Positions 8,748 through 50,479 of a stretch of 64,000 bases of DNA are shown here, one piece after another. The notes under the pieces were generated by a model. It was not told where the DNA came from and made no database searches. It saw only the letters and a program-made list of their open reading frames with translations. Position numbers and translations under genes: made by a program. Every line of letters starts with the position of its first letter. Position 1 is the stretch's first letter. This stretch comes from a virus, in IMG/VR virus record IMGVR_UViG_3300034071_001262, one strand, 5' to 3'.

Positions 8748-9061
8748 TGAAAGATATTTTAGGTTTATTAACTCCTACTCAATGGATTGTCTTGGGGTGT
8801 GGTGTATTGATGCTAATACTTGGTTCTAAAGATTATGTAGTATCAAATGTAAAAAGTTTGTTTGATAATAAACAGGAAGTAACACCCAAACCAACTACTA
8901 ATACAGATTTAACATCTATAGTAGCAAAGTGGGAAATATTATCAAATGCCTGTAAACAAGCTAATTTACTTGATGCTTACAATAAATTACAAGAAGTATT
9001 TCCAATGTTGGTATCTGTATATACACTAGAAAAAAATAGGAAAACTATTGATGAAAAGTAA
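8744..9061 (+). CDS. Single-pass membrane protein
   Basis: N-terminal TM WIVLGCGVLMLILG. Confidence 0.6.
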   Translation: MMKDILGLLTPTQWIVLGCGVLMLILGSKDYVVSNVKSLFDNKQEVTPKPTTNTDLTSIVAKWEILSNACKQANLLDAYNKLQEVFPMLVSVYTLEKNRKTIDEK

Positions 9062-21468: not shown

Positions 21469-21862
21469 AACAGAACACATAAAGAACCTATTAAAAAAAG
21501 CAATAGAAACAAATGACGAAGAACTAATTGCACTAGCAAGTTCTTTAATGTCTGAACAAGACATAGCAGCACCAATAGAGAAAAAAGACGACAATAATGA
21601 ATTCATCTTCACTATGCCAAAATCACAGAATGACAACAAAAGAGGGGTGCCTGTAAATGCCATCAAGAAACGTGTAAATACGTTTCAAGATGATGGAATA
21701 GAAGCCAAAGATATTACTACACCAGATATAAAGCCAACAGAAAGAAAGCGACCAAGGTTTCAACCAATATATCAAACTTGTCAAAAGTGCAATAAATCAA
21801 TTCAGACTCATCCAACACATAAAAGAGATTTCTTTATCTGCGATAGATGTATAGGTAAATAA
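21461..21862 (+). CDS. Hypothetical protein with C-terminal zinc finger
   Basis: CQKC...CDRC. Confidence 0.6.
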   Translation: MNKTEHIKNLLKKAIETNDEELIALASSLMSEQDIAAPIEKKDDNNEFIFTMPKSQNDNKRGVPVNAIKKRVNTFQDDGIEAKDITTPDIKPTERKRPRFQPIYQTCQKCNKSIQTHPTHKRDFFICDRCIGK

Positions 21863-23322
21863 TGCAAAAGAAAAGCTTGCTAGAAAATGCTGCATCTGAA
21901 AGAGCCGTATTGGCTGGATTATGCCAATATGGCTTAGATGTGTATCTCAATATAGACTTTGTTGATACCGACCATTTTCATAATAGCACCAATCAACTTA
22001 TATTCAGTTGCTTAAAGGCCATAATAAACAATAATATCAAAGTTGATTTAACATCAATTCTATCTGCCGCTAGTGATCTAGGTATTTCTGAAAAGATTAA
22101 TACTAAAGATGAAATAGGTTTCATTAGATCATTATTTAATTTCCCTATTCATAAAGAAAATGTTTCCATACATGCAGCTAAAATCGCTAAATTAAAATTA
22201 GCTAGAGATCTAAAGCAAACTCTTAAAGTTTGCTCTGAGAGACTAGAGACTATAAACGGTGAAGAAGATATCATGGATATGATATCTAGTATAGAAGAGC
22301 CAATATTAGATGCAACGTCTAGTATTTATCAATCATCTAATAAGTCTACTGAAATCATAGGATCAAATATAGAAGAGTATATTACATACCTATGCGACAA
22401 TCCATCAGATTTTGCAGGTATTCCAACAGGCTTTAGTAGATATGATTTAGCCATAGGTGGTGGCTTGCGTAGAAAATGCGTAGATTTAATTGCCGCCAGA
22501 CCAAAAATTGGTAAATCAATGTTTGGTGATGCTGTAGCTTTAAATGTATCCAAAGGACTTAAAATACCAGTTCTTATGCTCGATACTGAAATGTCAAAGG
22601 AAGATCATCTCAATCGCATGATAGCAAATTTGAGCGGTGTAGAAATTAATAAGATATCTACTGGAAAATTTGGACAATGTGAATTAGATAAAGAGAAGGT
22701 ATATAAGGCAGCAGAAGAACTTAAAAGTATTCCATATCACTACATCAGTATTGCTGGTCAGCCATTTGAAAATATAATATCAATCATGAGAAAATGGATA
22801 TATCAATATGTAGGATTTAATGAGGATGGCTCTACTAAAGACTGTTTAATAATATATGACTATCTAAAATTAATGGGATCAGAAACAATAAACAATTCTA
22901 TGCAAGAATATCAAGTTCTTGGTTTTCAAATTACTAAACTACATAATTTTTGCGTAAAGTATGATGTACCATGCCTTAGTTTTGTACAATTAAATAGAGA
23001 TGGTATTACTAAGGAATCTACAGATGTAGTTTCTGGATCAGATAGATTAATTTGGCTATGTACAAGTTTCTCAATATTCAAGCTAAAATCAGATGAAGAA
23101 ATTGCTGAAGATAGGCAAGAAAATGGAAATCGTAAACTTGTACCAATCGTGTCAAGGCATGGTGGAGGACTAGATGATGGCGATTATATTAGCATGAAGA
23201 TGTTTGGCTCTATTGGTAAAATAGAAGAAGGCAAGACTAGAAACGAAATACATCAAAAGGCAAAAAATAAACAAGAAGGATTTGAGATCGATGGAGAAAT
23301 TGACTCAGAAACAGATATATAG
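21862..23322 (+). CDS. dnaB: Replicative DNA helicase
   Basis: ERAVL, GIPTGF, AARPKIGKS, DTEM, IYDYLKL, VQLNR. Confidence 0.93.
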   Translation: MQKKSLLENAASERAVLAGLCQYGLDVYLNIDFVDTDHFHNSTNQLIFSCLKAIINNNIKVDLTSILSAASDLGISEKINTKDEIGFIRSLFNFPIHKENVSIHAAKIAKLKLARDLKQTLKVCSERLETINGEEDIMDMISSIEEPILDATSSIYQSSNKSTEIIGSNIEEYITYLCDNPSDFAGIPTGFSRYDLAIGGGLRRKCVDLIAARPKIGKSMFGDAVALNVSKGLKIPVLMLDTEMSKEDHLNRMIANLSGVEINKISTGKFGQCELDKEKVYKAAEELKSIPYHYISIAGQPFENIISIMRKWIYQYVGFNEDGSTKDCLIIYDYLKLMGSETINNSMQEYQVLGFQITKLHNFCVKYDVPCLSFVQLNRDGITKESTDVVSGSDRLIWLCTSFSIFKLKSDEEIAEDRQENGNRKLVPIVSRHGGGLDDGDYISMKMFGSIGKIEEGKTRNEIHQKAKNKQEGFEIDGEIDSETDI

Positions 23323-24331
23323 TATCTGTGTTAAATTGATAGACAATATTCCCAAAATATTGAATACATTTCAAATTGACTACATAGAATATCCAAATAG
23401 ATTTTCATTTCCTTGTCCTGTGCATGGTGGTGATAATCCAGAGGGATGCAGTTTGTTTGTTGATGGCGATTCAGCTAAAGGTAATTGGAGATGCTGGACA
23501 CATAATTGTCAAGAAGAATATACTAGTAATATTTTTGGATTTGTTAGAGGGGCTATGTCTCACACACGAAGAAAAAAAATCTCATTAAATGAAACTCTAT
23601 CATTTTGTGAAAATATACTTGGCACAAAATTGAACCACTCTGATATAGAAATACCAACCAAAAATTTAGACATACTAGAAGTCTTTACAAAAAAACCACA
23701 AGATATAGGTAGTGAATTATCTAGATCACAAGTTAGATTAAAACTAGATATACCATGCAAATACTTTATCAATAGAGGATTTCTACCAGAAACGTTAAAC
23801 ACATTTGATGTTGGTATTTGTAAAGAAAAAAATAAACCTATGTCTGGCAGATCTGTAGTACCAATATATGATCAATCATATAAATATGTTGGATGTGCTG
23901 GTAGAGCATTGAACAATGATTTGCAACCTAAGTGGTTATACAGTAAAGGCTTTAAAAAAGCTGTGTTATATGGTATGCATATAGCTAAATATGATATATT
24001 ACAAACTGGTAACATAATTTTGGTAGAAGGTCAGGGTGATGTATGGAGGATGCACGAAGCTGGATATAAACAAACAGTAGGTATTTTTGGTTCCAGTATC
24101 AGTGATGATCAACTATTACTAATGGAAAATAGTGGAGCATGTAATGTAATTATATTAACGGACTCAGATGATGCTGGTGATATGGCCTATAAACAGATAG
24201 TCAAAAAATGCGGTCGTAGATTTAATTATTATCGACCACGAATTTCAGCCAAAGATGCTGGCGATATGAAAATATCAGATCTACAGAAAGAACTAGCACC
24301 CCAACTAAAAGGAGTAATTGATGCAAACTAG
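23291..24331 (+). CDS. dnaG: DNA primase (CHC2 zinc finger plus TOPRIM)
   Basis: CPVH...WRCWTHNC, GRAL...PKW, LVEGQGD, DSDDAG, KDAGD. Confidence 0.9.
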   Translation: MEKLTQKQIYSICVKLIDNIPKILNTFQIDYIEYPNRFSFPCPVHGGDNPEGCSLFVDGDSAKGNWRCWTHNCQEEYTSNIFGFVRGAMSHTRRKKISLNETLSFCENILGTKLNHSDIEIPTKNLDILEVFTKKPQDIGSELSRSQVRLKLDIPCKYFINRGFLPETLNTFDVGICKEKNKPMSGRSVVPIYDQSYKYVGCAGRALNNDLQPKWLYSKGFKKAVLYGMHIAKYDILQTGNIILVEGQGDVWRMHEAGYKQTVGIFGSSISDDQLLLMENSGACNVIILTDSDDAGDMAYKQIVKKCGRRFNYYRPRISAKDAGDMKISDLQKELAPQLKGVIDAN

Positions 24332-26231: not shown

Positions 26232-26714
26232 ATGTTAGAAGTAAAAATTACAGAACAGATGAAAGAGCGAGCTTTTCAAAAGGCCAAAGATATGGGTAAA
26301 TTGGTTAATTCTATCACTAATGGTGATGGTAATTTGGCTGGATTTTTAGGAGAAGAAATAGCCAATTCTGTTATTAATGGCACGATTAATAATACTTATG
26401 ATTATGATATAATTAAAGAAGGAAAAAAATATGACGTAAAAACAAAAAGATGTACAAGTAAACCAAAAGAATATTACGAATGTTCGATAGCGGCATATAA
26501 TACTAAACAAAAATGTGACACATATGTATTCGTGCGAATAGAATACAAAAATAATAACTGGGGTAGGGCTTGGATTCTAGGATATTTTCCTAAAACAGAA
26601 TATTTTCAAAAGGCAAGATTTCTAAAACAGGGGGATATAGACCATAGTAATGGCTTTATTGTAAAAGCTAACTGTTATAATATGGCAATCAAGGATCTTA
26701 AACAATATGGCTGA
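26232..26714 (+). CDS. Putative restriction-fold nuclease / conserved phage protein
   Basis: GFLGE...YDYDII...YDVKTK pattern. Confidence 0.5.
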   Translation: MLEVKITEQMKERAFQKAKDMGKLVNSITNGDGNLAGFLGEEIANSVINGTINNTYDYDIIKEGKKYDVKTKRCTSKPKEYYECSIAAYNTKQKCDTYVFVRIEYKNNNWGRAWILGYFPKTEYFQKARFLKQGDIDHSNGFIVKANCYNMAIKDLKQYG

Positions 26715-27615
26715 ATTACTCGACTTACATAAAGAATTTCATCTTGGTAATATGTTTACATATAACGTTGGAAAAAAATTAGCCAACTTATTATGTAATA
26801 AATTCAGAGTAATTCTAAAGTATGATAATGCAGAATTGCCAATATTTAATGATGATTTACTAAATATTGAAATAGCGACCTCAAGAGAAACACACTCTAT
26901 ACCTAATAATTTTTTTAGAGATGATGTTTACGCTATTTTTCAAAACTATTTTATGCTAGATAGATGGGAATATCCTATATATAATCCACTAGCATATCCA
27001 ATGCCAATAGGAACATTTGTCGATTTTGATCAGTTGAAATCTATAGAAATCAAACCGATTCCAGAAAGGAAATATGATTTTTCTTTTGTGGGGCAAATAC
27101 CACACACTGGTACTAGAGATTCTTTTAAAAGAAATATAGAACAATTAATATTAAAAACTGGCAAGAAGTTTAAATATGTATTAGAATTTACTAATGGTTT
27201 TAATAATGGACTATCACATACAGAATATGTTGAGCTATTAAACGACTCAAAAATAGCATTGTGTCCACCCGGCGCTTATAGCTTAGAAACATTTAGATTT
27301 TTTGAATGCATTAAAATGGGCGCAATTCCAATGGTTGAAAGATTGCCCAAGCTGTGGTATTATGAGAATGCACCATTCTTCAAGTGTAGGTGGCACGAAT
27401 TAGATTTTTATTTATCAACATCTTTGAATTATCTAAATAGCACTATATCCAGAAACACATTTGAAAAATTAGCTATATATAATATGAACATACTAGATGA
27501 GCAACAACTCGCACTACATTTATATAAAGTATTACAAAATAGAAATAATATAGATAAAACAATTATACAATCAGAAATACAAAAAATAAGAAGAGAGCTA
27601 GAACAATATGTCTAA
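26707..27615 (+). CDS. Exostosin-like (GT47) glycosyltransferase
   Basis: YDFSFVGQ...R, SKIALCPPG..SLETFRFFECIKMGAIP. Confidence 0.75.
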   Translation: MAELLDLHKEFHLGNMFTYNVGKKLANLLCNKFRVILKYDNAELPIFNDDLLNIEIATSRETHSIPNNFFRDDVYAIFQNYFMLDRWEYPIYNPLAYPMPIGTFVDFDQLKSIEIKPIPERKYDFSFVGQIPHTGTRDSFKRNIEQLILKTGKKFKYVLEFTNGFNNGLSHTEYVELLNDSKIALCPPGAYSLETFRFFECIKMGAIPMVERLPKLWYYENAPFFKCRWHELDFYLSTSLNYLNSTISRNTFEKLAIYNMNILDEQQLALHLYKVLQNRNNIDKTIIQSEIQKIRRELEQYV

Positions 27616-29203
27616 TATTGCATTAAATTGTAAAACACATTTTAGTTTACTAAATGGCTTATCACAATGTGACGACTTAGCAAAGAGATGTAATGAGTAT
27701 GGATATGATGGCTGTGTTATAGCAGATAAAAAAACCATATCTGGAGCAATAGAGTTTCATCAAGCCTGTAAAAAAAACAACATTAAACCAATTATAGGAT
27801 GTGATTTTGGCGAATTTATATTGATTGCAAAAAATAAATCTGGATGGTTTGAACTAATGAGAATAGTTTCAGATATTGATCATATCATGCTAGAGGATAT
27901 TGCTAAAACCAACAATATATTATGTATGTCTAACGATCTAAATATAGAAAAAATTTTTCTAGACAATTTTATTCAATGTAATATAAAGCAATATGCTATC
28001 TACTATGTAGATCAAAAGGACGTAGAGTGTCATCGTATTTTGTTATGTGCGGATCAGAAAACAACATTGCCAAATATAAAGAAAAAGATCAGAAACAATG
28101 AAGAATTTGAGCATATGGAATTTTTTACTAGAAATGATTTCTACTTAACTATTCCGCCAAGTGATACTATTTATCAATCAATTTCTGATAAGTTAAACAT
28201 ATTATGCGAGTCATATGATATAACAGAAAAACCACGACTACCAAAATTTCAATGCCCAAATGATATTAATGAAAATGATTATTTGAGGCAGTTATGTAGA
28301 ATTGGGTGGATGGATAGATTAATCAAAACTGGTAAAATATTGAATGAAGATAAAAAGACGGAATATACTAATAGAATAAAACATGAACTGGATGTAATAC
28401 TAAATGCAAATCTCGCCGGATATTTTCTAATTGTGCAAGATATAGTCAATGAAGTCAAGCGTAGAGGATGGTTAGCTGGTCCCGGTAGAGGTTCAGCCGC
28501 AGGGTGTCTGGTATCGTTTCTAGTAGGAATTACAGATGTGGACCCAATCCAACATGGTCTACTTTTTGAAAGATTCTACAACGAAGGTAGAAACACTAAA
28601 GACCACATCTCGTTACCAGATATTGATGTCGATGTACCAGCTGAATATAGAGATAACATTATTGACTATATCAAAACAAAATATGGACATGAAAATGTAT
28701 CTCAAATGATTACATTCGGTAGACTACAAGGTAGAGCAGCATTAAAAGAGGTTTTAAGGATTAATGATGCCGTGTCATTTGCTGAAATGAATGAGATAAC
28801 TAAAAGAATACCAAACGAGGCAGAAATCTCTGATCAGCTAGAATTAATGGGTGAAAAATCTATCATTAATTGGGCATTAGATAATGACGCTGAATCATTA
28901 AAGAATTGGTGCTATAAAAACGAAAATGGCACATTAGAAGGACCGCTAGCAGATATATTTAAACAGGCAATCGACATTGAGGGTACTAATAAGTCGCAAG
29001 GCAAACATGCGGCTGGAGTATTAATCTCTCAACAAAAACTTCTAGATATATGTCCAATGGTTAAAGACAAAAACGATCAAATGATAGCCGCATTTGAAAT
29101 GAACGATTTAGAAAGCCAAGGACATATCAAGTTCGATATTCTTGGAATTGATTTATTAAGTAAGATCATGGAGATTATTGGAGACGAAAATGACAATAAC
29201 TAA
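27608..29203 (+). CDS. dnaE: DNA polymerase III alpha, N-terminal part (degenerate PHP plus palm/thumb)
   Basis: THFSLLNG, GPGRGSAAG, LLFERF, PDIDVD, HAAG, KFDILG, then a stop. Confidence 0.92.
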   Translation: MSNIALNCKTHFSLLNGLSQCDDLAKRCNEYGYDGCVIADKKTISGAIEFHQACKKNNIKPIIGCDFGEFILIAKNKSGWFELMRIVSDIDHIMLEDIAKTNNILCMSNDLNIEKIFLDNFIQCNIKQYAIYYVDQKDVECHRILLCADQKTTLPNIKKKIRNNEEFEHMEFFTRNDFYLTIPPSDTIYQSISDKLNILCESYDITEKPRLPKFQCPNDINENDYLRQLCRIGWMDRLIKTGKILNEDKKTEYTNRIKHELDVILNANLAGYFLIVQDIVNEVKRRGWLAGPGRGSAAGCLVSFLVGITDVDPIQHGLLFERFYNEGRNTKDHISLPDIDVDVPAEYRDNIIDYIKTKYGHENVSQMITFGRLQGRAALKEVLRINDAVSFAEMNEITKRIPNEAEISDQLELMGEKSIINWALDNDAESLKNWCYKNENGTLEGPLADIFKQAIDIEGTNKSQGKHAAGVLISQQKLLDICPMVKDKNDQMIAAFEMNDLESQGHIKFDILGIDLLSKIMEIIGDENDNN

Positions 29204-29426
29204 GCAAGATATTAAAGCTGTTGTTTTTGCTGGATGCGCTGTAGATTGTGGTGGTGTGTCTATATGTAACATAGAAAATCATCTCAAGAACAAATTGATA
29301 TCCAGAGCAGCAAAGTACCAAGTTTGGTCAGATAAGCATCATTGTTATAATATGTATCATAATATTGATGAAGCTGTAGATAAATTTTTTGCATTAACCA
29401 GAGGAAAACTGAATGGCAAATCATAG
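29190..29426 (+). CDS. Small hypothetical protein between the dnaE halves
   Basis: GGAG RBS before ATG 29190; overlaps both neighbours. Confidence 0.55.
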   Translation: MTITKQDIKAVVFAGCAVDCGGVSICNIENHLKNKLISRAAKYQVWSDKHHCYNMYHNIDEAVDKFFALTRGKLNGKS

Positions 29427-30102
29427 AGATTATATTGTGTTCGACTTTGAAACTGGTGGCGCTGATCCAAATACATGTCAACCCACACAGATAGCCGCAG
29501 TAGCCATACATGCGAAGAAGTTGGAACTACAACCAAATGGAGTCTTTAATAGTGAAATTAGACCAATAATTGACGATGAAGAAGCTATTAAAGCTGGAGT
29601 AGGACCGCTTGAGGATAAGGCATTAGAGATTACCAGAAAAAATAGAGACACTTTAGCCAAAGCACCGCTACCAAAAGTTGTATGGAAAAAATTTGCAGAA
29701 TTCTGTAATCAATACAATTTTAAGAAAACATCATATACCGCACCAGTAGCTGTTGGCTATAATATCATTGGATATGATATGGTTATCGTAGATCGCTTAT
29801 GTAAACAATATGGACCATTTGATAAAATCAAAAATGAGCAAAAGATCTTTAATCCAATATTCAAGATAGATCTAATGAATCATATATATTGCTGGTTTGA
29901 AAATAATCACGATGTAAAAGGTTATAACATGGATTATTTAAGAGATTATTTCGGAATATCTTCAGAAAATTCACATGACGCCTTACAAGACGTTAAAGAT
30001 ACAGCAAATATACTGATAAAATTTCTAAAGCTACAGCGTAATCTATTAAAGAAAATCAAGTTTGAAAAAGCCTTTGCAAATAGCGAACTCTATATACAAT
30101 AG
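29413..30102 (+). CDS. dnaQ: DEDDh 3'-5' exonuclease (Pol III epsilon-like)
   Basis: ExoI VFDFETGG, ExoII GYN...YD, ExoIII HDALQD. Confidence 0.85.
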   Translation: MANHRDYIVFDFETGGADPNTCQPTQIAAVAIHAKKLELQPNGVFNSEIRPIIDDEEAIKAGVGPLEDKALEITRKNRDTLAKAPLPKVVWKKFAEFCNQYNFKKTSYTAPVAVGYNIIGYDMVIVDRLCKQYGPFDKIKNEQKIFNPIFKIDLMNHIYCWFENNHDVKGYNMDYLRDYFGISSENSHDALQDVKDTANILIKFLKLQRNLLKKIKFEKAFANSELYIQ

Positions 30103-30111
30103 ACAATTAAC

Positions 30112-31659
30112 ATGAAAACATTTAACATAAATGATTTTGATGACGACGAGGTTTGGGATTTGATTTGTACTGGAAAAACCAAAGGAGTTTTTCAATTAGA
30201 ATCTAATCTTGGACGACATTGGGCTAAACAGCTAAAACCTAGAAACCTATCAGAACTTGCAGCTTTGATTAGTTTAATTAGACCGGGATGTCTAAAGGCG
30301 TATGTAGATGGCAAATCTATGACGCAACATTATATTGATAGAAAACATGCCAAAGACCCAGTAACATATCCTCATGACTCATTGGAGTCAATTTTAAGTG
30401 AGACATATGGTGTATTGGTATATCAAGAACAATCCATGATGATTGCACAAAAACTAGCAGGATTTTCACTAAAAGAAGCGGATTCACTGCGTAAAGCGAT
30501 TGGCAAGAAAAATGCAGCACTCATGAATGAAGTCAAAGAACAATTTATTCAAGGATCAGAAAAACTAAATATAGTCACGAAAGAGTCAGCAGAAGAAATT
30601 TTCTCTTGGATAGAAAAATCTAATAGATATGCATTTAATAAATCACATGCAGTCTCCTATGCTATCAATGCGTATTGGAGTGCGTATTGTAAAAAATGGA
30701 AACCACTAAGCTTCTATAAAACTTACCTAAATCATGCACATAGAAAGCCAGACTCACAAAAAGAAATAAAGGAATTAATCACTGATGCAAAATCAAACGA
30801 TATAGATGTATATCCACCAAGGCTAGATAATCTATATACAGATTTCACAATCAAGAATGGTAAGATATTTTTTGGCTTAAATCATATTAAAAATGTTGGA
30901 GAAGCAGAGTGCAAAAAAATCCAAGAAATCAAATATAATCATGATATAACTAGATATACATGGCTAGATTGTTTGATAAATATTATTCATAGATACAACC
31001 TTAATAAGAGATCCGTTATAGCTTTAATATCTGCTGGAGCATTTAATGGTAAATATAATCTAGAACATAGAAAAAAGATGTTATATGAATATGATAGTTG
31101 GAAATTACTTTCTAATAGAGAGCAAGATCATATAGCTAATAATTATGCTGGTAAAAAATCACTACATGACTGTATAATAGACTTATTATCAACACTAAAA
31201 ATAGTACAAAGTAGACAGCAAATCGTATTAGATATTAGTAATTCACTGAAAAATCCAATGTACAACTTGGAAGATTCAATCGTAACTATAGCCGAAGAAG
31301 AATCGAAATATTTTGGATGTTCTTTAACATGCAATAAGACAGATGCTTCTGACCAATTTCTTGCTGCTAATATGTGCAAAGATATATCCAATGGCTTGAT
31401 AACAGGTAAGGCAAATATAGTAGTGAGTATTAACTCTGTTCGTCAATACAAAACAAAAAAGGGTAAAAATCCCGGTCAGATAATGGCTTTTTTGTGTGCT
31501 GAAGACAGTAGTGGAATGCTAGACTCTATTACCATTTTTCCAGAGACTTATTCAGAATATAAAGATTTATTGACAGAAGGCAATACAGTATATATTAATG
31601 GAGAAATCTCTAAAAAGGAAAACACATCATTAATTGTAAATAAAGTTACACAAGTTTGA
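30112..31659 (+). CDS. dnaE: DNA polymerase III alpha, C-terminal part (fingers, HhH, OB)
   Basis: GVFQLES, LIRPG, TYGVLVYQEQ, AD.LRKAIGKK, YAFNKSHA, GL..IKNVG, MAF...ED.SG OB fold. Confidence 0.92.
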   Translation: MKTFNINDFDDDEVWDLICTGKTKGVFQLESNLGRHWAKQLKPRNLSELAALISLIRPGCLKAYVDGKSMTQHYIDRKHAKDPVTYPHDSLESILSETYGVLVYQEQSMMIAQKLAGFSLKEADSLRKAIGKKNAALMNEVKEQFIQGSEKLNIVTKESAEEIFSWIEKSNRYAFNKSHAVSYAINAYWSAYCKKWKPLSFYKTYLNHAHRKPDSQKEIKELITDAKSNDIDVYPPRLDNLYTDFTIKNGKIFFGLNHIKNVGEAECKKIQEIKYNHDITRYTWLDCLINIIHRYNLNKRSVIALISAGAFNGKYNLEHRKKMLYEYDSWKLLSNREQDHIANNYAGKKSLHDCIIDLLSTLKIVQSRQQIVLDISNSLKNPMYNLEDSIVTIAEEESKYFGCSLTCNKTDASDQFLAANMCKDISNGLITGKANIVVSINSVRQYKTKKGKNPGQIMAFLCAEDSSGMLDSITIFPETYSEYKDLLTEGNTVYINGEISKKENTSLIVNKVTQV

Positions 31660-31673
31660 GGATTATAGATCAT

Positions 31674-31970
31674 ATGAATAAGTGTCATTTTCTTGGTAGG
31701 TTTGTAGATACGCCACAATTGCAAACAAATGATTTTGCAAAATTCACTAGATTTCTTCTAGAAATAGAAGAATATAGAAAAGATAAAGATGGAAACAAGC
31801 GTAAAAGAAAAGATATATTAGAATTTGAAGCATGGGATAGTGCTGCAATAGCGATTACCACTCAATCAATGGCTAATGACTATATAGTAGTAGAGGCCGT
31901 AGCTAGAAAAGAAAATAATAATACTGTTTTTAGAATCACAACATTTAAAATATTTGTAAATCAAAATTGA
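31674..31970 (+). CDS. ssb: Single-stranded DNA-binding protein (short, no acidic tail)
   Basis: MNKCHFLGRF..PQL...EAWD..A OB-fold pattern. Confidence 0.7.
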   Translation: MNKCHFLGRFVDTPQLQTNDFAKFTRFLLEIEEYRKDKDGNKRKRKDILEFEAWDSAAIAITTQSMANDYIVVEAVARKENNNTVFRITTFKIFVNQN

Positions 31971-31971
31971 T

Positions 31972-33609
31972 ATGAAAAAGAAAGTTTTATTCTTATCAGA
32001 AGCTCCGTGGTATAGCACTGGATATTCTGTATATGGAAATCAAGTCCTAAAAAGACTAGTACAAAATCCATCTTTAGATGTTGCACAAATAGCTATATAC
32101 GCCTCTTCAGATGACCCACATGTCAAAGATTTTCCTTGGAAAATTTATGGCAATAAACCATCAAGTAATCATCCACAATATAAGACTTATCAAGTAAGTC
32201 CTAGCGCTCAATTTGGGGATTTTTCTTTTAATGAAGTATTATTAGATTTTAATCCACATTTTGTATTAGATATTAGGGATTGGTGGATGATTGAGTTTCA
32301 GCAAAGATCGCCGTTTAGAAATTTTTTCAAGTGGGCAATAATGCCAACTGTTGATGCTGAACCACAAAATAATCAATGGATTAATACATATGAATCAGCA
32401 GATGCTGTTTTTACATATTCAGAATTTGGTAGAGATGTACTATTAAATCAGTGTGATAATATTAAGTTTTTAGACATTGCATCTCCAGCAGCAAGTGAAT
32501 GTTTTACTCCTGTTGCTAACAAGGCACAACATAAATCACAATGCGGTTTAAGACCAGATTCATTGATATTTGGCACCGTCATGCGTAATCAAAAAAGAAA
32601 ACTTTATCCAGACTTGTTTGAATCATTTAGAGAATTTCTAAATCTATCAAATAGAAATGATGTATTTTTATATTGCCATACATATTATCCAGATATCGGA
32701 TGGAATATACCAGAATTATTAGACACGTATTCTTTATCTAACAGGGTATTATTTACATACAAATGTAAAAAATGTGGTAAAATTACTACTGATTTTTTTC
32801 AAGATGCTATGCAGTTTTGTAAGTCGTGTGGTAATTTTACTAATGCGTTGGTTGGTATTGGCAATAGCATTACAGAAAAAGAATTAGCTAAAATCTATAA
32901 TATATTTGATGTATATATACAATATGCAAATAGTGAGGGTTTTGGTATGCCGCAATTAGAAGCAGCATACTGTGGTTTACCAGTTGTTTCTATATATTAT
33001 TCAGCAATGAAGTCTGTCATTGATAATATCGGAGGTATAGGTGTAAATCCAATTGCGTTTAGTAAAGAATGCGAAACCGGTTGCAATAGAGCTATTCCAA
33101 ACAATCAAGAGTTTATTGATATATTATTAAGGCTATCAGAAAAAACTCAAGATGAATTAAAAAATATAGGTACTAGCGTATGCAATAAAGCAAGAAAAGC
33201 ATATAGTTGGGACCAGACAGCAAATAAGTGGATGGACTATATATTAAATACAGAAATTATACCAGAGCATCTTTCTTGGAAATCACCATCAAAATTATTT
33301 AGTCCAGCACATGCTATTCCAGAACAGTTGACTACATCTTTAGATAAGGTTAATTTCATTTTTAATAACGTATTGGGAAAACCAGAATGGATTGGCGGAT
33401 ATCTTTGGAGAAGAGTATTAAGAGATTGTAGTTTTGGATATAGGTGTGAAAATCTTGAGCATGATTTTTACTTTAATGAATCGCATATACAATCATATAG
33501 TACTGTTAAACCATTTTCTATAGATGAAGCCATGAAAGAAATGACAAATTTTAGACTACAAATGAATCATTGGGAACAGGCCAGATTGGAAAAATTTAAA
33601 ATATCATGA
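31972..33609 (+). CDS. GT4 glycosyltransferase with inserted zinc ribbon
   Basis: STGY, RNQKRK, SEGFGMPQLEAAYCG; CKKC-x13-CKSC insertion. Confidence 0.85.
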   Translation: MKKKVLFLSEAPWYSTGYSVYGNQVLKRLVQNPSLDVAQIAIYASSDDPHVKDFPWKIYGNKPSSNHPQYKTYQVSPSAQFGDFSFNEVLLDFNPHFVLDIRDWWMIEFQQRSPFRNFFKWAIMPTVDAEPQNNQWINTYESADAVFTYSEFGRDVLLNQCDNIKFLDIASPAASECFTPVANKAQHKSQCGLRPDSLIFGTVMRNQKRKLYPDLFESFREFLNLSNRNDVFLYCHTYYPDIGWNIPELLDTYSLSNRVLFTYKCKKCGKITTDFFQDAMQFCKSCGNFTNALVGIGNSITEKELAKIYNIFDVYIQYANSEGFGMPQLEAAYCGLPVVSIYYSAMKSVIDNIGGIGVNPIAFSKECETGCNRAIPNNQEFIDILLRLSEKTQDELKNIGTSVCNKARKAYSWDQTANKWMDYILNTEIIPEHLSWKSPSKLFSPAHAIPEQLTTSLDKVNFIFNNVLGKPEWIGGYLWRRVLRDCSFGYRCENLEHDFYFNESHIQSYSTVKPFSIDEAMKEMTNFRLQMNHWEQARLEKFKIS

Positions 33610-34694
33610 AAGTTTTATATATAGGTAACTATAGAGATGGTAGTGGCTGGTCTGATGCCTGTATTAACAATATTTTGGCAATGGACAAAATAGGTATTGA
33701 TGTTGTGCCAAGATGTGTCTCGTATTCTGTGCAACATGGAAATCCACCAGAGAAGATTTTAGAACTAGAAAAAAAATCAAGTTATAATTGCGATATATGT
33801 ATTCAGCATGTTTTACCAGATTCATATGTATATGATTCTACATATAAAAAAAATATAGGATTTTTAGCCGTAGAAAGCTCTAATTTTAAAGATACTGCAT
33901 GGCAACATCATGCAAATTTATTAGATGAAATATGGGTGCCTAGTTTATATTCTAAGGCGGCATGTAGAAGAAGTGGTATTACTGTTCCTATTCATGTGGT
34001 TCCACATTCTTTAGATATAAATCAATATCTAAATGCACAATTTACAAAAAAAATTGTAGAATTAGAGAATACTTTTAATTTTCTATTTATTGGCGAGTTT
34101 ATTGAAAGAAAGAATATATCAGCTTTAATAAAAGCATTTCATACTGAATTTGATATGACAGAGCCTGTCAATCTTATGATTAAAACATCTAGGCAGAACA
34201 TTGACTATATCAATAATTATAGTGAATCAATAAAAAGAGGGCTTAAAATTAGAACCTCATATAAAAAAGAAATCATCATTTGTGGTAAGCTTAATAAAAA
34301 TGATTATCTTTCTGTAATAAAACAGTGCCATTGTTTTGTAATGCCAAGTAGGGCAGAGGGATTTTGTATACCAGCTTTAGAAGCTATGGCCCTTGGATTA
34401 CCAGTAATACATGCTAGTAATACTGGAATGGATGATTTTAGTTATGGCATAAAAGTAATGTCAAGAACTACACCATGCTTTGGGGCGGTTGATACAATTC
34501 CATTTTTGGACAATGCGCATAGTGATTGGTCAGAAATAGATATAAGATCTCTAATGATAGCTATGAGAAACTATTATATGAAATGGAATACAGTAGAAGC
34601 AAAAAATGATACACATAATGCCATAGAAAAAGCTAAGTTATATAGTCATCAGTCTGTTGGCACAACAATAAAGGATTTATTAAATGATTGCTAG
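33606..34694 (+). CDS. GT4 glycosyltransferase
   Basis: ERKN, PSRAEGFCIPALEAMALG. Confidence 0.85.
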   Translation: MKVLYIGNYRDGSGWSDACINNILAMDKIGIDVVPRCVSYSVQHGNPPEKILELEKKSSYNCDICIQHVLPDSYVYDSTYKKNIGFLAVESSNFKDTAWQHHANLLDEIWVPSLYSKAACRRSGITVPIHVVPHSLDINQYLNAQFTKKIVELENTFNFLFIGEFIERKNISALIKAFHTEFDMTEPVNLMIKTSRQNIDYINNYSESIKRGLKIRTSYKKEIIICGKLNKNDYLSVIKQCHCFVMPSRAEGFCIPALEAMALGLPVIHASNTGMDDFSYGIKVMSRTTPCFGAVDTIPFLDNAHSDWSEIDIRSLMIAMRNYYMKWNTVEAKNDTHNAIEKAKLYSHQSVGTTIKDLLNDC

Positions 34695-35709
34695 TGCAAT
34701 TCCAAAAAACATAAAAGCAATACTAAAACATCCACAGCGTGAAGATAAGCTAAATATTCTTACATTTACCACGCATGAAAGATATGAACAAAATTTATCA
34801 AAAACTGGTCATAATTTCTATGCTTTAAATTATGGCAAATCTTGGGATAAAGACTATGGAGTAATTCCAGAAAATTACAACATCATAAATGAAGTACCGC
34901 CATATTTAGACATAGATATAGTTTTATCACACACATCCTGTGATAGATTACAATATGCTCACGACACATTATCTAACACTAAAAATGCTGGATTGTCAAT
35001 GTTGGCTATACCAATCCTAAGACATACACATGTTCTTCCAGATATAAGAATGGATGTAGAACAACAAAAATCTATATTTCAAAATATACCAGTATTTGCA
35101 AATTCTTTTATATCTGATTACAGCAGAAAGAAATGGGGCTATAATGAATCTAATTCTAATGTAGTTGAACATGGTGTGGATACAGATTTTTGGTTTCCAA
35201 CAAAAGATAAGCGAGATAACGTATGTTTATCCGTTGTAAATGATTGGCCCAATAGAGATTGGTGCTGTGGTTTTAATTTATGGAGAGAGACATCATACGG
35301 ATTACCAGTTCGCGTATATGGTAAAAGTGCCGGTTTTTCTCAACCAGCAGAATCAGTAGAACACTTAAGAGATATATATTCTTCATCTATGATTTTTTAT
35401 AATACATCCATACATTCGCCAGTTCCGACAGTGTTATTAGAAGCAATGGCTTGTGGTTGTGCCATAGTATCAACTGCTAATTGTATGATACCAGAAATCA
35501 TTACACACAAGTATGATGGCTTAATATCAAATGATCCATCAGAACTTAGATCGTTTTTAGAATTGTTATTAAACAACAATGATTTAGCTCGTCAAATCGG
35601 AGATAATGCAAGAAAAACCATACTAGAAAAGTTCAACCTAAACAGGTTTTGTGATAACTGGAACAATCTACTATATACAACTATAGAACGTTACAAGGGA
35701 AAAATATGA
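34684..35709 (+). CDS. GT4 glycosyltransferase
   Basis: HGVD, SPVPTVLLEAMACG, DGLI, IG.NAR. Confidence 0.85.
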   Translation: MIASAIPKNIKAILKHPQREDKLNILTFTTHERYEQNLSKTGHNFYALNYGKSWDKDYGVIPENYNIINEVPPYLDIDIVLSHTSCDRLQYAHDTLSNTKNAGLSMLAIPILRHTHVLPDIRMDVEQQKSIFQNIPVFANSFISDYSRKKWGYNESNSNVVEHGVDTDFWFPTKDKRDNVCLSVVNDWPNRDWCCGFNLWRETSYGLPVRVYGKSAGFSQPAESVEHLRDIYSSSMIFYNTSIHSPVPTVLLEAMACGCAIVSTANCMIPEIITHKYDGLISNDPSELRSFLELLLNNNDLARQIGDNARKTILEKFNLNRFCDNWNNLLYTTIERYKGKI

Positions 35710-36125
35710 AGATTTTTTTATCAAATCATAAGCCAAGTATAGATAACTATATATGGATTAATAATCTATCACAGCTAAATGATTCAGTTTTACCATCAGA
35801 AGCTACCGAAATTATTTGTGAAGATTTTTTGTCATCATTTGCTATAAATGAACAACAAGAACTACTTAATAAAATAACTGAAAAATTGAGACTTAATTCT
35901 AAACTAATAATATCAGAAGTTGACTGTGGTTTAATAACAAAGAGATTTTATTTGGAAGAAATTAATTTGGATGAATTAAATGAAAAAATGTTTAGCGGGA
36001 AAAGAAAAAGTATTTTATCGGTTCATGAGATTATAAAAAATCTACCAGATAAATTACAAGTAAATAATAAACACTTCCAGTATAATGAGTGTAAGATCAT
36101 TTTGACATGCAGGAGGCACAAATGA
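35706..36125 (+). CDS. Hypothetical, degenerate methyltransferase-like
   Basis: ATEIICEDFLSSF...LLNKITEKLRLNSKLII resembles the C-terminal half of class I SAM methyltransferases; no GxG motif. Confidence 0.35.
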   Translation: MKIFLSNHKPSIDNYIWINNLSQLNDSVLPSEATEIICEDFLSSFAINEQQELLNKITEKLRLNSKLIISEVDCGLITKRFYLEEINLDELNEKMFSGKRKSILSVHEIIKNLPDKLQVNNKHFQYNECKIILTCRRHK

Positions 36126-36916
36126 ATATCAATACAAAATGTAATGGATGCGTGTTTAGTGTTTATGAAAATAACATACAGATATCATGCAAGCTAGATA
36201 GACATAATAAATTAACATATGATACGCACGATGAAGAGGGGGCTTTTATCTTAAATAGATTTTGTAGCACATATCGTCCACAAAATTGGCTAGAGGAATT
36301 GTCTGTACAAGAAAGCGAAAATATAGTTTCAACTGTCTTACGAGAGATTATCCCGTGTGTAGGATTTTTTGTTTTGTTAAAAACAGATTCTTTGGATGCT
36401 ATGAGTAAATTAGAAAGCACTATAAAAGACATAAAGAATCAATCTTTTGCTGCCAGATATGTTGTAGTATCAACAGATAAAGTAGAATACAATGAAGGCA
36501 TACAAGAGCTGTTATGTAAATATTTTGATTTTGATACCACTAATCATCATATTGTACAATTAATACAACAGCCATCATCAATGCCATTTATTATAGACGA
36601 ATGTTTCAAACATGCAAAAAATGGGTGGGCATATGTGTGTGAGTCTGGAGAATCAATAGATAATAAGCTAATTGAAAAAATCCATAAACGAGTTAATTTA
36701 GATCTAAAACGTCTTAGTGTTGTCAAGCCATATAAAGAACCACTTAATGGTTTATTATTTCAAACAGCTTTATTCAAATTTCTCCACGGAAACACCGTGA
36801 AATTGTTTAAAGATGATGTTGTAGATAATAGAGAATTTCTAGATAAAGTGGCTAATGCCGCAATTAAAAGTGATCCAGACACATTTATCACATGGGAACA
36901 ATTCAATGAATCCTAA
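36122..36916 (+). CDS. Cys-rich N-domain plus degenerate GT2-like protein
   Basis: CNGCVF...C...FC, then LESTIKDIKNQS. Confidence 0.4.
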   Translation: MNINTKCNGCVFSVYENNIQISCKLDRHNKLTYDTHDEEGAFILNRFCSTYRPQNWLEELSVQESENIVSTVLREIIPCVGFFVLLKTDSLDAMSKLESTIKDIKNQSFAARYVVVSTDKVEYNEGIQELLCKYFDFDTTNHHIVQLIQQPSSMPFIIDECFKHAKNGWAYVCESGESIDNKLIEKIHKRVNLDLKRLSVVKPYKEPLNGLLFQTALFKFLHGNTVKLFKDDVVDNREFLDKVANAAIKSDPDTFITWEQFNES

Positions 36917-37682
36917 TGTAGCTATTATTATTACTAACTATAATTATGGTAAATATGTTATACAAGCAATAAATAGCGCCACTAATCAAGATTACGCTGG
37001 TAACTTGCGTGTATATGTTTTAGATGATGGATCTAGTGATGACTCTTGGGAAAAAATTTCGAATATCACAGATCACCAATATTGTGCAACAATAAATGAA
37101 CCCTATTATTCTGGCCCAATTGACCACAGACAAAAGGATAATATTTATGCTTTTAGGATTAATAATTCTGGAGCAAGTACTGGCAGAAATGTAGCTATAT
37201 GGCAGTCATGGGATTGGGCTGAAATTTTTGGTATATTAGATGCTGATGATGCCTATTTTGAAAATAAGGTGTCTATCTTGGTAGAAAAATTAATTGAATA
37301 CGAAGAAGTAGGAGTGGCATACGCTGATTATAATAATGTATATTCAGGTTATCGTAAAACAGAATTTAAAGAATCATATAGTAGAGATATATTGTTAAAT
37401 CGCTGTATAGTGCATAGCAACTCCCTTATTAAAAAATCAAAAATAGAGTCTGTCATACTTCCAAATAAAGAAATTTTTGATTCTAGGTTACATGGCGCAG
37501 CTAGCAAGGGATTTATAGGATGTACTGAAGATTATGACTTATGGTTAAGATTATCTAAGGTTTGTATTTTCACGCACGTTCCAAAAATATTAGCCATTGC
37601 TAATCAAACTGGACAAAATCAATCATATAAAATGACATCAGAAATCTTTAAAGAAAACGCTAAAATATTAAGTAGCAGATAA
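36906..37682 (+). CDS. GT2 glycosyltransferase
   Basis: IIITNYNY, DDGSSD, GRN, LDADD, EDYDLWLR. Confidence 0.9.
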   Translation: MNPNVAIIITNYNYGKYVIQAINSATNQDYAGNLRVYVLDDGSSDDSWEKISNITDHQYCATINEPYYSGPIDHRQKDNIYAFRINNSGASTGRNVAIWQSWDWAEIFGILDADDAYFENKVSILVEKLIEYEEVGVAYADYNNVYSGYRKTEFKESYSRDILLNRCIVHSNSLIKKSKIESVILPNKEIFDSRLHGAASKGFIGCTEDYDLWLRLSKVCIFTHVPKILAIANQTGQNQSYKMTSEIFKENAKILSSR

Positions 37683-38404
37683 TGAATAGATTTACAACTA
37701 ATATTACTAAGATAAGAATTAATCCTAAAACTTCTAAGAAGACAAGCAATATTAGTATCATCATGCTTTGTGCTGGAGTTGGATTAAGAATTAAATCATA
37801 TGAGCCTCGTAGTATTCTGAAAATAAAAAATAAAACACTACTAGAACATCAAATAGACATACTAAATACTGTATTTGATTGTCCAGAAATTATTTGCGTA
37901 GTTGGATACGACGCCCAAAAAATCATCAAAAAAAATTACAATGTCAGAATTGTGGAAAACCAATTATATGAAACCACAAACGCAGCTGAAAGTTTAAGAC
38001 TAGCCTTTAATAATACATTAAATGACAACATACTATTTCTACATGGTGATTTATTCTTTAATAAAGAAACATTTAATGTCAAGTATAATAAATCCTTTAT
38101 ATTAGTAGATAGCAATAAAAGATTTAACAATAGTGAAGTTGGTGTAACAATATGTAGTGACACCAACAAGGCTAGTATTTTATCGTATGGATTAAATACT
38201 AAATGGTGTCAGATCGCATACTTAACTGGTAAAGAAACAAAAATAGCTAAAAATTTATTCCAAAAATTTGAAACAACACATAAAAAAATGTTGTGTTTTG
38301 AATTATTAAATGAGATGATAAATACTGGAGCTTGTTTTGAATGTCATGAGCCTAACAATATGAGCATAACAGAAATAGATAGAATAAAGGATATTGATAT
38401 ATGA
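37682..38404 (+). CDS. NTP transferase (LicC/cytidylyltransferase-like)
   Basis: LCAGVGLRIKSYEP..L, VVGY, N..YETTN, GDL, EID..KD. Confidence 0.75.
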   Translation: MNRFTTNITKIRINPKTSKKTSNISIIMLCAGVGLRIKSYEPRSILKIKNKTLLEHQIDILNTVFDCPEIICVVGYDAQKIIKKNYNVRIVENQLYETTNAAESLRLAFNNTLNDNILFLHGDLFFNKETFNVKYNKSFILVDSNKRFNNSEVGVTICSDTNKASILSYGLNTKWCQIAYLTGKETKIAKNLFQKFETTHKKMLCFELLNEMINTGACFECHEPNNMSITEIDRIKDIDI

Positions 38405-39438
38405 AAGTATTGATAGCGAGTGATGGTGTACATGCTCATTTTTTTGAACGAGCAGCTTGGGCAAACGCATTTAATGCGTGTGGTATACAATCGATATTGT
38501 GGGATTGTAAAAAAATACCAGCATTTGATATATTTGATACATATGAACCAGATATTTTTTTAGGACAGACATATAATTTAGAACCAGCTTTGATTAAATG
38601 TATCTATGAAAGACCACATTTAAAAGTGGCTTTACGTGCTGGAGATTGGGGAGATCAAGAATCTATAGTTGATAAATCGCAGTATAATATTTTATACTGC
38701 TCATCGTCAGAAAAACAGATTTTGCAGAAATTAAAAGATGAGACAGGAAAACCAGATTTTGTATATATTCATTATGATGAAACATCAATAAATATTACCC
38801 ATAATCATTTTAGATCTATTGGCATTGAACCTAAATCAGTAATGATGAGCGCGGACATAATGATGTATTCTAATGCACAGTATGATCCCAAACTAGATTG
38901 TGATATAGCGTTTGTTGGTGGCTATTGGCCCTATAAGGGTTTAGTAATCAATCAGTATCTATTTCCATTAATGAACGATGTTGGTAAATATAATATTAAA
39001 ATCTTTGGAAATCAAGTATGGCCCTCAAATCAATATTGTGGTATGATAAGTGACACAGAAGTAAAGAATCTCTTTGTATCTGCGAAAATTTGTCCAAATT
39101 TAAGCGAGCCACATGCACATGCGTTTGGTATAGATGTCAATGAGAGAATTTTCAAGATTTTATTTGCTGGCGGATTTTGTATATCTGATTATGTAGATTC
39201 ATATAAATTATTTGGTGATGGTTTGATTATGGCTAAAACACCAGACGAATTTCAAAACAAAATAGAATATTATCTAAATCATCCGTCAGAAAGAATAAAG
39301 GTTGCTAATATTGGACAATCAATAGTAAAAAAATATCACACATCTTTTGATAGAATAGCACAAATCATGCATTATTTTAATATGCCACAAATTGCAAATC
39401 TTATTCTTACAAAAAAATTGGAGATAATAAATGTCTAA
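38401..39438 (+). CDS. CgeB-like glycosyltransferase
   Basis: DIAFVGG, AKICPN, VNERIFKILFAGGFCISD, YYL.HP.ER. Confidence 0.75.
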   Translation: MKVLIASDGVHAHFFERAAWANAFNACGIQSILWDCKKIPAFDIFDTYEPDIFLGQTYNLEPALIKCIYERPHLKVALRAGDWGDQESIVDKSQYNILYCSSSEKQILQKLKDETGKPDFVYIHYDETSINITHNHFRSIGIEPKSVMMSADIMMYSNAQYDPKLDCDIAFVGGYWPYKGLVINQYLFPLMNDVGKYNIKIFGNQVWPSNQYCGMISDTEVKNLFVSAKICPNLSEPHAHAFGIDVNERIFKILFAGGFCISDYVDSYKLFGDGLIMAKTPDEFQNKIEYYLNHPSERIKVANIGQSIVKKYHTSFDRIAQIMHYFNMPQIANLILTKKLEIINV

Positions 39439-40390
39439 AAAAGTATTAGTAACTGGAGCAAATGGATTTCTTGGCACTGCTGTAATTAAAAAACTATCAG
39501 AAGAAACTAAATACGATATACTTCCAGCAAATGGAAAAGCGAAGTGGGATCTAACAAATAAGAAATATGTTGATTGTATGTTGGCTCATTATCAACCAGA
39601 TATTGTTGTACACTTGGCGGCAAGAGTTGGGGGTATTCAAGCAAATAAAGAAAATCCGGGTTTATTCTTTTATGAAAATTTAATAATGGGTGTTAATTTA
39701 ATAGAAGCCTGTAGACAATATGACAAGTTAGAAAATTTCGTAATGGCCGGAACAGTATGCGCATATCCCAAATTTACTCCAGTTCCATTTAATGAAGATG
39801 ATATATGGAATGGTTTTCCAGAAGAAACCAATGCTCCATACGGGATAGCAAAAAAAACATTAATGCAAATGCTTATAGCGTATAAACAACAATATAATTT
39901 TAATTGTGTCAATTTAATTCCAGTAAATATGTATGGACCAAATGATAATTTTGATCCAAGAATTAGTCATGTTATACCAGCTCTTATCTTGAAATATAAG
40001 CGAGCAATAATCAAAAAAGAAGATGTAGTAGAAATATGGGGTACTGGTAACGCTAGTAGAGAATTTTTATATGTAGATGATTGTGCAGAAGCCATAGTAA
40101 AATCCATTACGGCTAATGTGTCTCCAGAACCTATTAATATAGGAACTGGTAATGAAATTAATATTAGAGATCTGGCATCGCTTATTGGAAAAGAAATGGG
40201 ATATACTGGAAGCATACAATTTAATTCAAATTTTCCAGATGGACAACCAAGGAGATGTTTAGATACTAACAGGGCGAAGTCGTTGCTGGGCTTTCAAGCC
40301 AAAACATCCTTTATGGATGGTATAAAATATACCGTTGAGTGGTTTAATCAAAATGAGGGTAGATTTAATGATTACATCAATAATTTTTAG
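39431..40390 (+). CDS. fcl: GDP-L-fucose synthase / ColC-like epimerase-reductase
   Basis: GANGFLG, AARVGGIQAN, GTVCAYP, YGIAK, NMYGPNDNF, SHVIPAL, REFLYVDD, PDGQPRR. Confidence 0.92.
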   Translation: MSKKVLVTGANGFLGTAVIKKLSEETKYDILPANGKAKWDLTNKKYVDCMLAHYQPDIVVHLAARVGGIQANKENPGLFFYENLIMGVNLIEACRQYDKLENFVMAGTVCAYPKFTPVPFNEDDIWNGFPEETNAPYGIAKKTLMQMLIAYKQQYNFNCVNLIPVNMYGPNDNFDPRISHVIPALILKYKRAIIKKEDVVEIWGTGNASREFLYVDDCAEAIVKSITANVSPEPINIGTGNEINIRDLASLIGKEMGYTGSIQFNSNFPDGQPRRCLDTNRAKSLLGFQAKTSFMDGIKYTVEWFNQNEGRFNDYINNF

Positions 40391-41916: not shown

Positions 41917-41917
41917 C

Positions 41918-47078: not shown

Positions 47079-47083
47079 TTATT

Positions 47084-50432: not shown

Positions 50433-50470
50433 GTTTAATAGTCTCCTTAAATGAGATTAATCTAGTATTG

Positions 50471-50479
50471 TATACACAA
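50471..50479 (-). promoter_or_regulatory. Candidate late promoter TTGTGTATA
   Basis: Intergenic, 38 nt upstream of ATG 50432; identical to 11493-11501. Confidence 0.3.

Follow-up and report, generated by a model that had tools for sequence, protein, structure and literature searches.

To our knowledge, all characterised C-family replicases are either single chains or chains rejoined by inteins. The alpha subunit of DNA polymerase III (Pol III), DnaE, comes from two genes in cyanobacteria (Synechocystis, Nostoc punctiforme), where both products are needed and where IntN and IntC segments ligate the halves, encoded far apart, by trans-splicing at the Y/CFNKSH site inside the fingers. Here we describe a stretch of 64,000 nucleotides (the window) from the IMG/VR virus record IMGVR_UViG_3300034071_001262 in which dnaE is likewise divided over two genes, but without an intein, with YAFNKSH intact, with the cut about 190 residues earlier and with the halves in one operon on either side of a gene for a proofreading exonuclease. 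We consider it very probable that the phage makes a DnaE-type Pol III alpha as two chains, which come together non-covalently and act with a separate proofreader, and most likely that this two-piece form is obligate. The arrangement is a new form of the known intein-less “genes in pieces”, and a full-text search of the literature gave no description of a full-length C-family replicase cut at the palm–fingers loop with a proofreader gene in the gap.

Replication enzymes in two pieces are also known outside family C, such as the split PolB of Methanothermobacter. Intein-less splits of Aeh1 NrdA, broken by mobE, and of the gp43 DNA polymerase of Aeromonas T4-like phages are cited in PMC2677866. 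In these cases, as probably in ours, an essential replication enzyme exists as two non-covalently reassembling polypeptides with the halves adjacent in one operon. However, they concern class I ribonucleotide reductase or family B polymerases, with either a homing endonuclease or no gene at all between the pieces, whereas the phage enzyme belongs to family C, is cut between palm and fingers, has its own proofreader in the gap and is found throughout a very large clade. The “fractured genes” of marine metagenomes, which include three dnaE loci (Dassa et al. 2009, PMC2677866), are phage-like as well and share with our locus the dnaE pieces in one operon with a gene between them, but they contain a split intein and a free-standing homing endonuclease, and the palm–fingers junction has neither.

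Three further systems resemble the locus in part. The E. coli Pol III core (alpha–epsilon–theta) also combines a DnaE with an inactive PHP domain, a separate DEDDh exonuclease with a conserved tail and an associated small third gene product of about 76–78 residues; there, however, alpha is one polypeptide, and the small phage protein does not resemble theta (HolE) or P1 HOT in sequence, nor does it appear to do so in its predicted fold. In group 2.2 jumbo phages a C-family catalytic module in two proteins has been predicted computationally (Iyer et al. 2021, PMC7824862), but it is a minimal nucleotidyltransferase core lacking PHP, HhH and OB domains, encoded by distant genes and present beside a family B replicase, whereas the window phage has a full-length DnaE split within one operon and no other polymerase was found on its 82.8-kb contig. 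Lastly, Bacillus phage Jayan (PQ299153, L007 3545-6952), in which “DNA polymerase” is annotated twice, has DnaE-like open reading frames (ORFs) of 410 and 634 residues with a 76-residue ORF between them and an exonuclease adjacent, but the break lies just before PDIDVD inside the palm, the exonuclease is downstream rather than between, and identity is only about 30%. The genes with which we are concerned are the following:

27608..29203, + strand, dnaE N-half, 531 residues, with PHP, palm and thumb
29190..29426, + strand, small conserved gene, 78 residues, overlapping the N-half stop and the exonuclease start
29413..30102, + strand, DEDDh (DnaQ/epsilon-like) 3′-5′ exonuclease, 229 residues
30112..31659, + strand, dnaE C-half, 515 residues, with fingers, HhH and OB, starting 9 nucleotides past the exonuclease stop
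31656..31970, + strand, small SSB-like OB-fold gene directly 3′ of the C-half, a conserved fifth member of the module

An earlier note, made from the letters of the window alone, had assigned DnaE to two ORFs (27608-29203 and 30112-31659), and both assignments are confirmed. The two are separated by 908 nucleotides holding two genes, where DnaE is otherwise a single chain of about 1100–1200 residues. The N-half matches the Pfam PHP family (PF02811) at residues 6–91 (6.2e-16, 59.6 bits, first half of the model only) and the full DNA_pol3_alpha model (PF07733) at residues 225–513 (1.3e-72, 245 bits). The C-half matches DNA_pol3_finger (PF17657) at residues 8–151 (8.3e-48, 162 bits), HHH_6 (PF14579; 2.6e-11, 44 bits) and, weakly, an OB fold (3.7e-4, 20.8 bits, under the cut-off of 27). 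This order of fingers, HhH and OB is that of DnaE, and in a PDB alignment the C-half corresponds to Taq residues 650–945. Similarly, on PHROG 405, the full-length phage DnaE family, the N-half covers positions 246–609 and the C-half 627–1064. All three catalytic aspartates (D338, D340 and D510) are on the N-half, which ends 18 residues past KFDILG, both as the earlier note had read them; they are invariant in 16 relatives, and the PDIDVD and KFD motifs align to those of Taq and E. coli (E. coli D401, D403 and D555). The dNTP/template motifs of the fingers, RKAIGKK and YAFNKSH, are on the C-half, so that the active site is shared by both proteins, and with such a composite site neither half should be able to work alone.

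Nothing has been lost at the break. The N-half aligns to Taq alpha as far as residue 627 (E. coli 564) and continues for 12 extra residues, and the C-half aligns from Taq residue 650 (E. coli 591) with 8 residues ahead, giving a junction of about 20 residues compared to 22–26 in Taq and E. coli. Thus no sequence is missing, in agreement with the earlier reading, and the roughly 20 residues here cover about 22 in Taq. Throughout the clade to which the window belongs, the N-half stops 2–3 residues past ..KIMEI (the tail in the window itself is about 8 residues longer) and the C-half starts with M..FNINDF, while in an unsplit relative these residues form one uninterrupted sequence. In an AlphaFold2 (AF2) model of an unsplit relative (P0122; pLDDT 89, pTM 0.82) the break falls in a 10-residue coil (533–542) between the last palm helix (521–532) and the first fingers helix (543–551).

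The halves might nonetheless be rejoined, by trans-splicing through a cryptic split intein, by RNA splicing or by translational bypass of the 0.9-kb insert. Split inteins do rejoin cyanobacterial DnaE and the marine “fractured” dnaE genes (PMC2677866), and relatives within this clade have, at other sites in dnaE, true inteins as well as a split intein. However, a scan with the Hint and intein Pfam families (including Intein_splicing), which detects the inteins of these relatives, gives no match on either half at E<=0.01; the earlier observations that intein ends are lacking and that the cyanobacterial split-intein site is intact as YAFNKSH both stand. The approximately 20 junction residues all align to the native linker and could not accommodate an IntN (about 100 residues) or an IntC (about 35), and no Cys, Ser or Thr follows the C-half start. 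A search of positions 27000-32200 for Rfam introns found none, whether group I or group II, the sole match being a chance-level Chlorobi-RRM (E 0.85). Moreover, the intervening DNA codes for two proteins under purifying selection and is anything between 0.9 and over 3 kb long. We consider any such rejoining very improbable.

The variation in length owes to unrelated cargo genes, 0.3–2.3 kb of which lie between the halves in relatives, with gaps of up to more than 3 kb. As cargo is tolerated between them, the halves are independent genes. It occurs in the gaps between N-half and small gene, small gene and exonuclease, and exonuclease and C-half (L020:9477-9878, L026:9464-10201, L033:7023-7667, L053, L061, L073:2175-3002, L079:6838-9039, L042), and comprises Endonuclease VII/HNH genes, FkbM and class-24 methyltransferases, a formyltransferase, a UDP-glucose dehydrogenase, a dTDP-sugar epimerase/reductase, a GT2 glycosyltransferase and an HTH protein.

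The first of these bears on the possibility that the gene was broken by homing endonuclease invasion, as for Aeh1 nrdA or T4-like gene 43, the exonuclease gene and the small gene having come along as passengers. Some relatives have an Endonuclease VII/HNH-type gene between exonuclease and C-half (L020 and similar loci), and intein-less splits caused by homing endonucleases are documented (PMC2677866). However, there is no homing endonuclease between the window halves, where the intervening ORFs are the DEDDh exonuclease and a 78-residue protein without a nuclease family match, and most relatives also lack an endonuclease gene there. Endonuclease VII is one of many sporadic cargo genes, beside methyltransferases and sugar enzymes, and the genes in the gap have long been neighbours of the polymerase gene. 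An origin by homing invasion is therefore unlikely in our view.

Inteins are found at other positions in relatives. Four of them have the exact fractured-gene layout at a second dnaE break, FNK/SH, three residues past the cyanobacterial intein site (L005:9502-10900, L051:4049-5400, L058:10405-11800, L104:7424-8668), with a true split intein (IntN CLSP.., IntC ..SN) and a free-standing DUF559/Vsr-like and NUMOD3 endonuclease gene. In relatives within the split clade, such as L005, dnaE is then in three pieces, with one junction intein-less and one with an intein. Additionally, a mini-intein of about 173 residues (CISGDT...VVHN/C) interrupts the C-half at RPG/C60 in two loci (L004:5351-5878, L005:8689-9207), and LAGLIDADG inteins are present in relatives with N-halves of about 1000 residues (P0140, P0141); both are absent from the window.

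The arrangement recurs in related phages, in about 80 IMG/VR loci: among 526 relatives found there, the best 80 loci nearly all read N-half, small gene, exonuclease, C-half and ssb, at 54–95% identity, far beyond what chance would give. N-halves of 518–552 residues, 57–99% identical to that of the window, make up more than 120 clusters (at 90% identity) in the protein database. The exact C-half, exonuclease and small protein of the window occur on 65, 77 and 84 contigs, respectively (NCBI, JGI, ENA and Logan), the longest of 147,684 bp, and identical proteins on 65–84 independent contigs exclude misassembly. The ratio of nonsynonymous to synonymous rates (dN/dS; Nei-Gojobori, more than 10 pairs) is 0.01–0.12 across the four genes, being 0.01–0.12 for the N-half, 0.01–0.09 for the C-half, 0.01–0.05 for the exonuclease and about 0.02–0.13 for the small gene where the synonymous rate (dS) is informative. 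All four genes are thus under strong purifying selection, and the relaxed selection on the halves that the earlier note named as a sign against its reading is not seen (0.01–0.12).

These data bear directly on the suspicion that the break is a misassembly or a broken dnaE heading for loss. Metagenome assemblies often split long essential genes through sequencing frameshifts (10.64898/2026.04.03.716430). Here, however, the identical arrangement is seen in assemblies from four sources and over 54–95% identity, both halves are under strong purifying selection with every catalytic residue kept, and two complete genes, rather than a frameshift, lie between them. This explanation is already refuted, and the chance left to it is negligible.

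The genes overlap or are closely spaced, as had been observed for the window: in 53 non-redundant loci the median spacings are -4, -4 and -8 nucleotides. Most junctions overlap, which is a signature of translational coupling. A comparison of the window to a 95% identical relative (L002) over 26232-30102 gives a dS that falls from 0.57 in a 160-residue ORF (orf160) upstream of dnaE to 0.20 in the N-half, 0.02 in the small gene and 0 at the exonuclease start, which suggests recent recombination inside the module.

The DEDDh exonuclease gene seen between the halves in the earlier note is genuine. It matches Pfam RNase_T (PF00929) with 44.9 bits against a cut-off of 24, as well as phrog_192, “DNA polymerase exonuclease subunit”. 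The Exo I, II and III motifs are present, and the DEDDh residues D11, E13, D122, H188 and D193 are invariant in 35 relatives. A C-terminal tail of about 25 residues is also conserved, with R209, F217 and F221 invariant. That the gene was “inserted” at the split, however, does not hold, as unsplit relatives have the small–exonuclease pair immediately upstream of an intact dnaE. The split and unsplit forms differ in that [small-exo] and [dnaE 5′ half], which adjoin each other, have exchanged places.

Neither is the split a singular event, as it first seemed, since several lineages share the same split loop. A single derived split was considered and overturned by wider sampling, which gave at least four split lineages interleaved with unsplit ones. 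Apart from the window clade, the second very large split group (split620) has N-halves of 610–624 residues with an intact PHP domain and the order N-small-exo-C-ssb (L096-L098). Its small protein (59–65 residues) was considered as a homologue of that in the window and rejected (hmmsearch E>0.7), and its C-half is extended by a leader of about 25 residues with an F-x-CGC motif. A third, deep-branching lineage (L101) has the same CGC leader, and reads N (617 residues), small gene of the window family, UDG, exonuclease and C-half, with further genes on either side of the exonuclease. The fourth (L107-L123, e.g. L113:5031-8864) has an N-half of about 527 residues, exonuclease and C-half, without a small gene, and junction tails of ..KLMKIKELINE* and MIDxKDxKxW. 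The sequences concerned are at L096:7878-8075 and 8770-8850, in L097 and L098, and at L101:6241-6330; the small protein of L096-L098 contains ..SCC.., and from sequence these cysteines and those of the CGC leader might form a shared metal site clamping the subunits.

Among the unsplit lineages the exonuclease lies in different places. In the sister lineage of the window clade (P0121-3) it is directly upstream (orf160-exo-dnaE). The next group (P0124-P0154, or the P0125 group) reads orf160-small-exo-dnaE-ssb, with a small gene homologous to that of the window (tblastn E 9e-10 and 4e-8), while in the P0163/P0176 group the exonuclease is downstream, after ssb and a glycosyltransferase gene; an IMG/VR scan with P0163 gave no match. 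We built trees from the N-part and from N+C, rooted with bacterial DnaE, using quick searches. These place P0121-3 as sister to the window clade (support 99–100), join the P0124-P0154 group, the pair of P0121-3 and window clade, and the N-exo-C clade (support 100), and unite split620 with the unsplit P0163/P0176 group (support 99). L101 is at a basal trichotomy, on a long branch whose placement is unsure. For groups named only after the tree was seen, an approximately unbiased (AU) test rejects one clade of split620 and window-clade N-halves (delta lnL 230, p ~1e-43). Transfer of an exonuclease cassette between split lineages was also considered and rejected, as the exonuclease trees mirror the DnaE trees. 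With split lineages interleaved among unsplit ones, the split state has changed several times; the trees point to at least three or four changes, always in the same palm–fingers loop.

The PHP domain is a further clue to the order of events. As the earlier note claimed, its metal-binding residues are missing, with the ligand alignment pairing N7, K9, N16, K41, A130 and Y132 with the H, H, D, H, D and H of bacterial DnaE. The domain, which is active in many DnaE1 proteins, is still recognisable, but at least six of the nine ligands are substituted and about 90 residues are deleted compared to bacteria. The N-half is nonetheless a DnaE family member, and its PHP is predicted to be catalytically dead, as in E. 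coli. The note had proposed that, as a consequence of the split, the embedded DnaQ replaces PHP proofreading. This does not survive the comparison: the unsplit sisters P0122 and P0123 have the same decay and the same shortening of about 90 residues, and relatives with a fully liganded PHP (P0125, P0132, P0135, L101 and split620) also have an exonuclease adjoining dnaE. The decay in the unsplit sister means that PHP decay is older than, and independent of, the split of the window clade, and the association of exonuclease with dnaE is older still.

Parsimony does not choose between four gains of the split and one gain with three re-fusions, which tie. The uniform gene order of split lineages, compared to the varied exonuclease positions of unsplit ones, leans towards an old split, while the clean-cut junction and the unsplit sister of the window clade lean towards a recent cut. 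If the cut is recent, the split was derived in the window lineage by block swap from a small-exo-dnaE-ssb ancestor, and other lineages went through like events independently at this same permissive loop. The unsplit sister P0121-3 with its exonuclease directly upstream (support 99–100) fits this, as do the next unsplit group with small-exo-dnaE-ssb and a homologous small gene, the clean cut without extra residues in the window clade where other split lineages differ in tails and leaders, and both the AU test against one clade of all split N-halves and the lack of cassette transfer in the exonuclease trees. However, it needs four independent exonuclease entries into the same loop (split531, N-exo-C, split620 and L101), which only ties under parsimony, and no intermediates of a duplication have been seen. 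We give this origin close to an even chance, though somewhat short of it.

If instead the split is old, N-(small)-exo-C is ancestral to the phage superclade and the unsplit forms are re-fusions in three lineages. Four split lineages, including the deep-branching L101, share one gene order and one loop, the exonuclease position varies among unsplit phages (upstream in P0121-3 and the P0125 group, downstream in the P0176 group), and the F-x-CGC leader of the C-half is common to L101 and split620 though the unsplit P0176 group is sister to split620. Against this are the three precise in-frame re-fusions needed beside the one gain, each moving an exonuclease gene presumed essential, two of which must independently yield the same exo-dnaE adjacency; the junction anatomies also differ among split lineages, and L101 is the long branch of unsure placement. 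We hold an ancestral split to be a serious possibility, only slightly less likely than the recent cut. For either direction one can speculate on duplication and subsequent loss as a plausible route that avoids a dead intermediate; for the forward swap, small-exo-N would be duplicated in tandem and the superfluous copies then lost.

The small gene most likely starts at ATG 29190, with GGAG 6 nucleotides upstream, although there is an alternative TTG start at 29178; public gene calls on 84 contigs give 78 residues, the same as the ATG 29190 start. It is conserved in at least 58 loci, with G15, C26, YQV43-45, A62 and F66 invariant, and a profile search places it in a family with about 154 representative clusters, almost all of short proteins (35–148 residues). 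Two distant members are on contigs of about 1 kb without gene context. The protein matches no Pfam or PHROG family at E<=0.01, nor any structure in a Foldseek search of the PDB (E<=0.001) or in the ESM Atlas, and the best hit of a VIA search, YkuJ (Z 5.7), is not convincing. Its AF2 model (pLDDT 79) is alpha/beta, a helix, four strands and a helix. The suggestion that it is theta-like thus finds no backing among the families listed: it has no Pfam, PHROG or PDB-fold match, the model is not a three-helix bundle, and the gene is absent near dnaE in two lineages.

Our proposal for how the system works is as follows. One polycistronic message with coupled translation would give balanced amounts of N-half, small protein, exonuclease and C-half. 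The N- and C-halves would then re-form the extensive palm–fingers interface of DnaE non-covalently. Proofreading would fall to the exonuclease, whose conserved tail probably holds it to the dead PHP domain, by analogy with E. coli epsilon (PMC3664792, PMC2528190). A promoter and terminator scan gave nothing above shuffled background, and no terminator between the module genes. The natural heterodimeric C-family replicase proposed in the earlier note stands as regards an intein-less, conserved and evidently functional split, and lacks support as regards DnaQ replacing PHP and a theta-like subunit.

Several points weigh against a two-piece replicase. The binding of the halves to each other is deduced from sequence, and the docking of the exonuclease on PHP from analogy. 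Within the window, no clear Shine-Dalgarno sequence precedes the C-half. The small protein is absent beside dnaE in the unsplit P0121-3 and N-exo-C lineages, and is thus not indispensable. Lastly, the 82.8-kb contig is only about 54% complete. It yielded no clamp (PF00712), clamp loader (PF13177), PolA or PolB, but genes for a second polymerase or for a clamp and its loader could lie outside it.

If two-piece DnaE without inteins is as widespread and strongly conserved as it appears, it would show that Pol III alpha can draw its palm, with the catalytic Asp residues, from one protein and its nucleotide-binding fingers from another, and the palm–fingers loop is a natural split point for engineering. 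The pairs of split and unsplit sister phages would make a tractable system for asking how essential genes break or re-fuse while staying functional throughout. Half-size “DNA polymerase III alpha” annotations in aquatic viromes are real genes rather than fragments, which annotators should bear in mind. A bolder interpretation is that the palm–fingers loop is uniquely permissive and has been switched at least 3–4 times, always with the proofreader between the halves, through selection for co-translational, stoichiometric assembly of a core made up of N-half, exonuclease and C-half, with or without a small protein, rather than by accident. We regard this as rather doubtful, but if true it would be a natural experiment in dismantling and reassembling an essential polymerase without inteins.

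The window lies within a viral contig of 82.8 kb in IMG/VR, which CheckV rates about 54% complete; GC content is about 32%, and the + strand carries nearly every gene as far as about 49 kb. On the same two-piece-replicase interpretation, the locus is very probably a functional operon for replication in an uncultured marine phage whose genome measures about 148 kb. Upstream of the dnaE N-half the replication module contains, in order:

21862-23322, DnaB-like helicase
23282-24331, DnaG/Toprim primase
after the primase and before the dnaE N-half, deoxynucleoside monophosphate (dNMP) kinase, PD-(D/E)XK nuclease, orf160 and a GT47-like glycosyltransferase

The SSB-like gene is slightly below the Pfam SSB cut-off of 26 (4.4e-5, 23.9 bits), but follows the C-half in nearly all relatives and the intact dnaE in L094, L095 and L099. 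A megablast of the locus against GenBank phages gave no match, and tblastn against the same phages gave identities of at most about 31%, so that no cultured relative is known. On the minus strand (49467-63929) are seven ORFs of 321–1296 residues, five of them above 500, which are presumably structural; their lack of a PHROG family at E<=0.001 fits a phage group lacking cultured relatives. The GT47-like gene (26707-27615) overlaps the start of the dnaE N-half, and a long run of glycosyltransferase and nucleotide-sugar genes directly follows ssb (window 31972-47557). The order of DnaB, primase, dNMP kinase, PD-(D/E)XK nuclease, dnaE module, ssb and glycosyltransferase cluster is common to all lineages examined, both marine and freshwater, on contigs of 130–170 kb.

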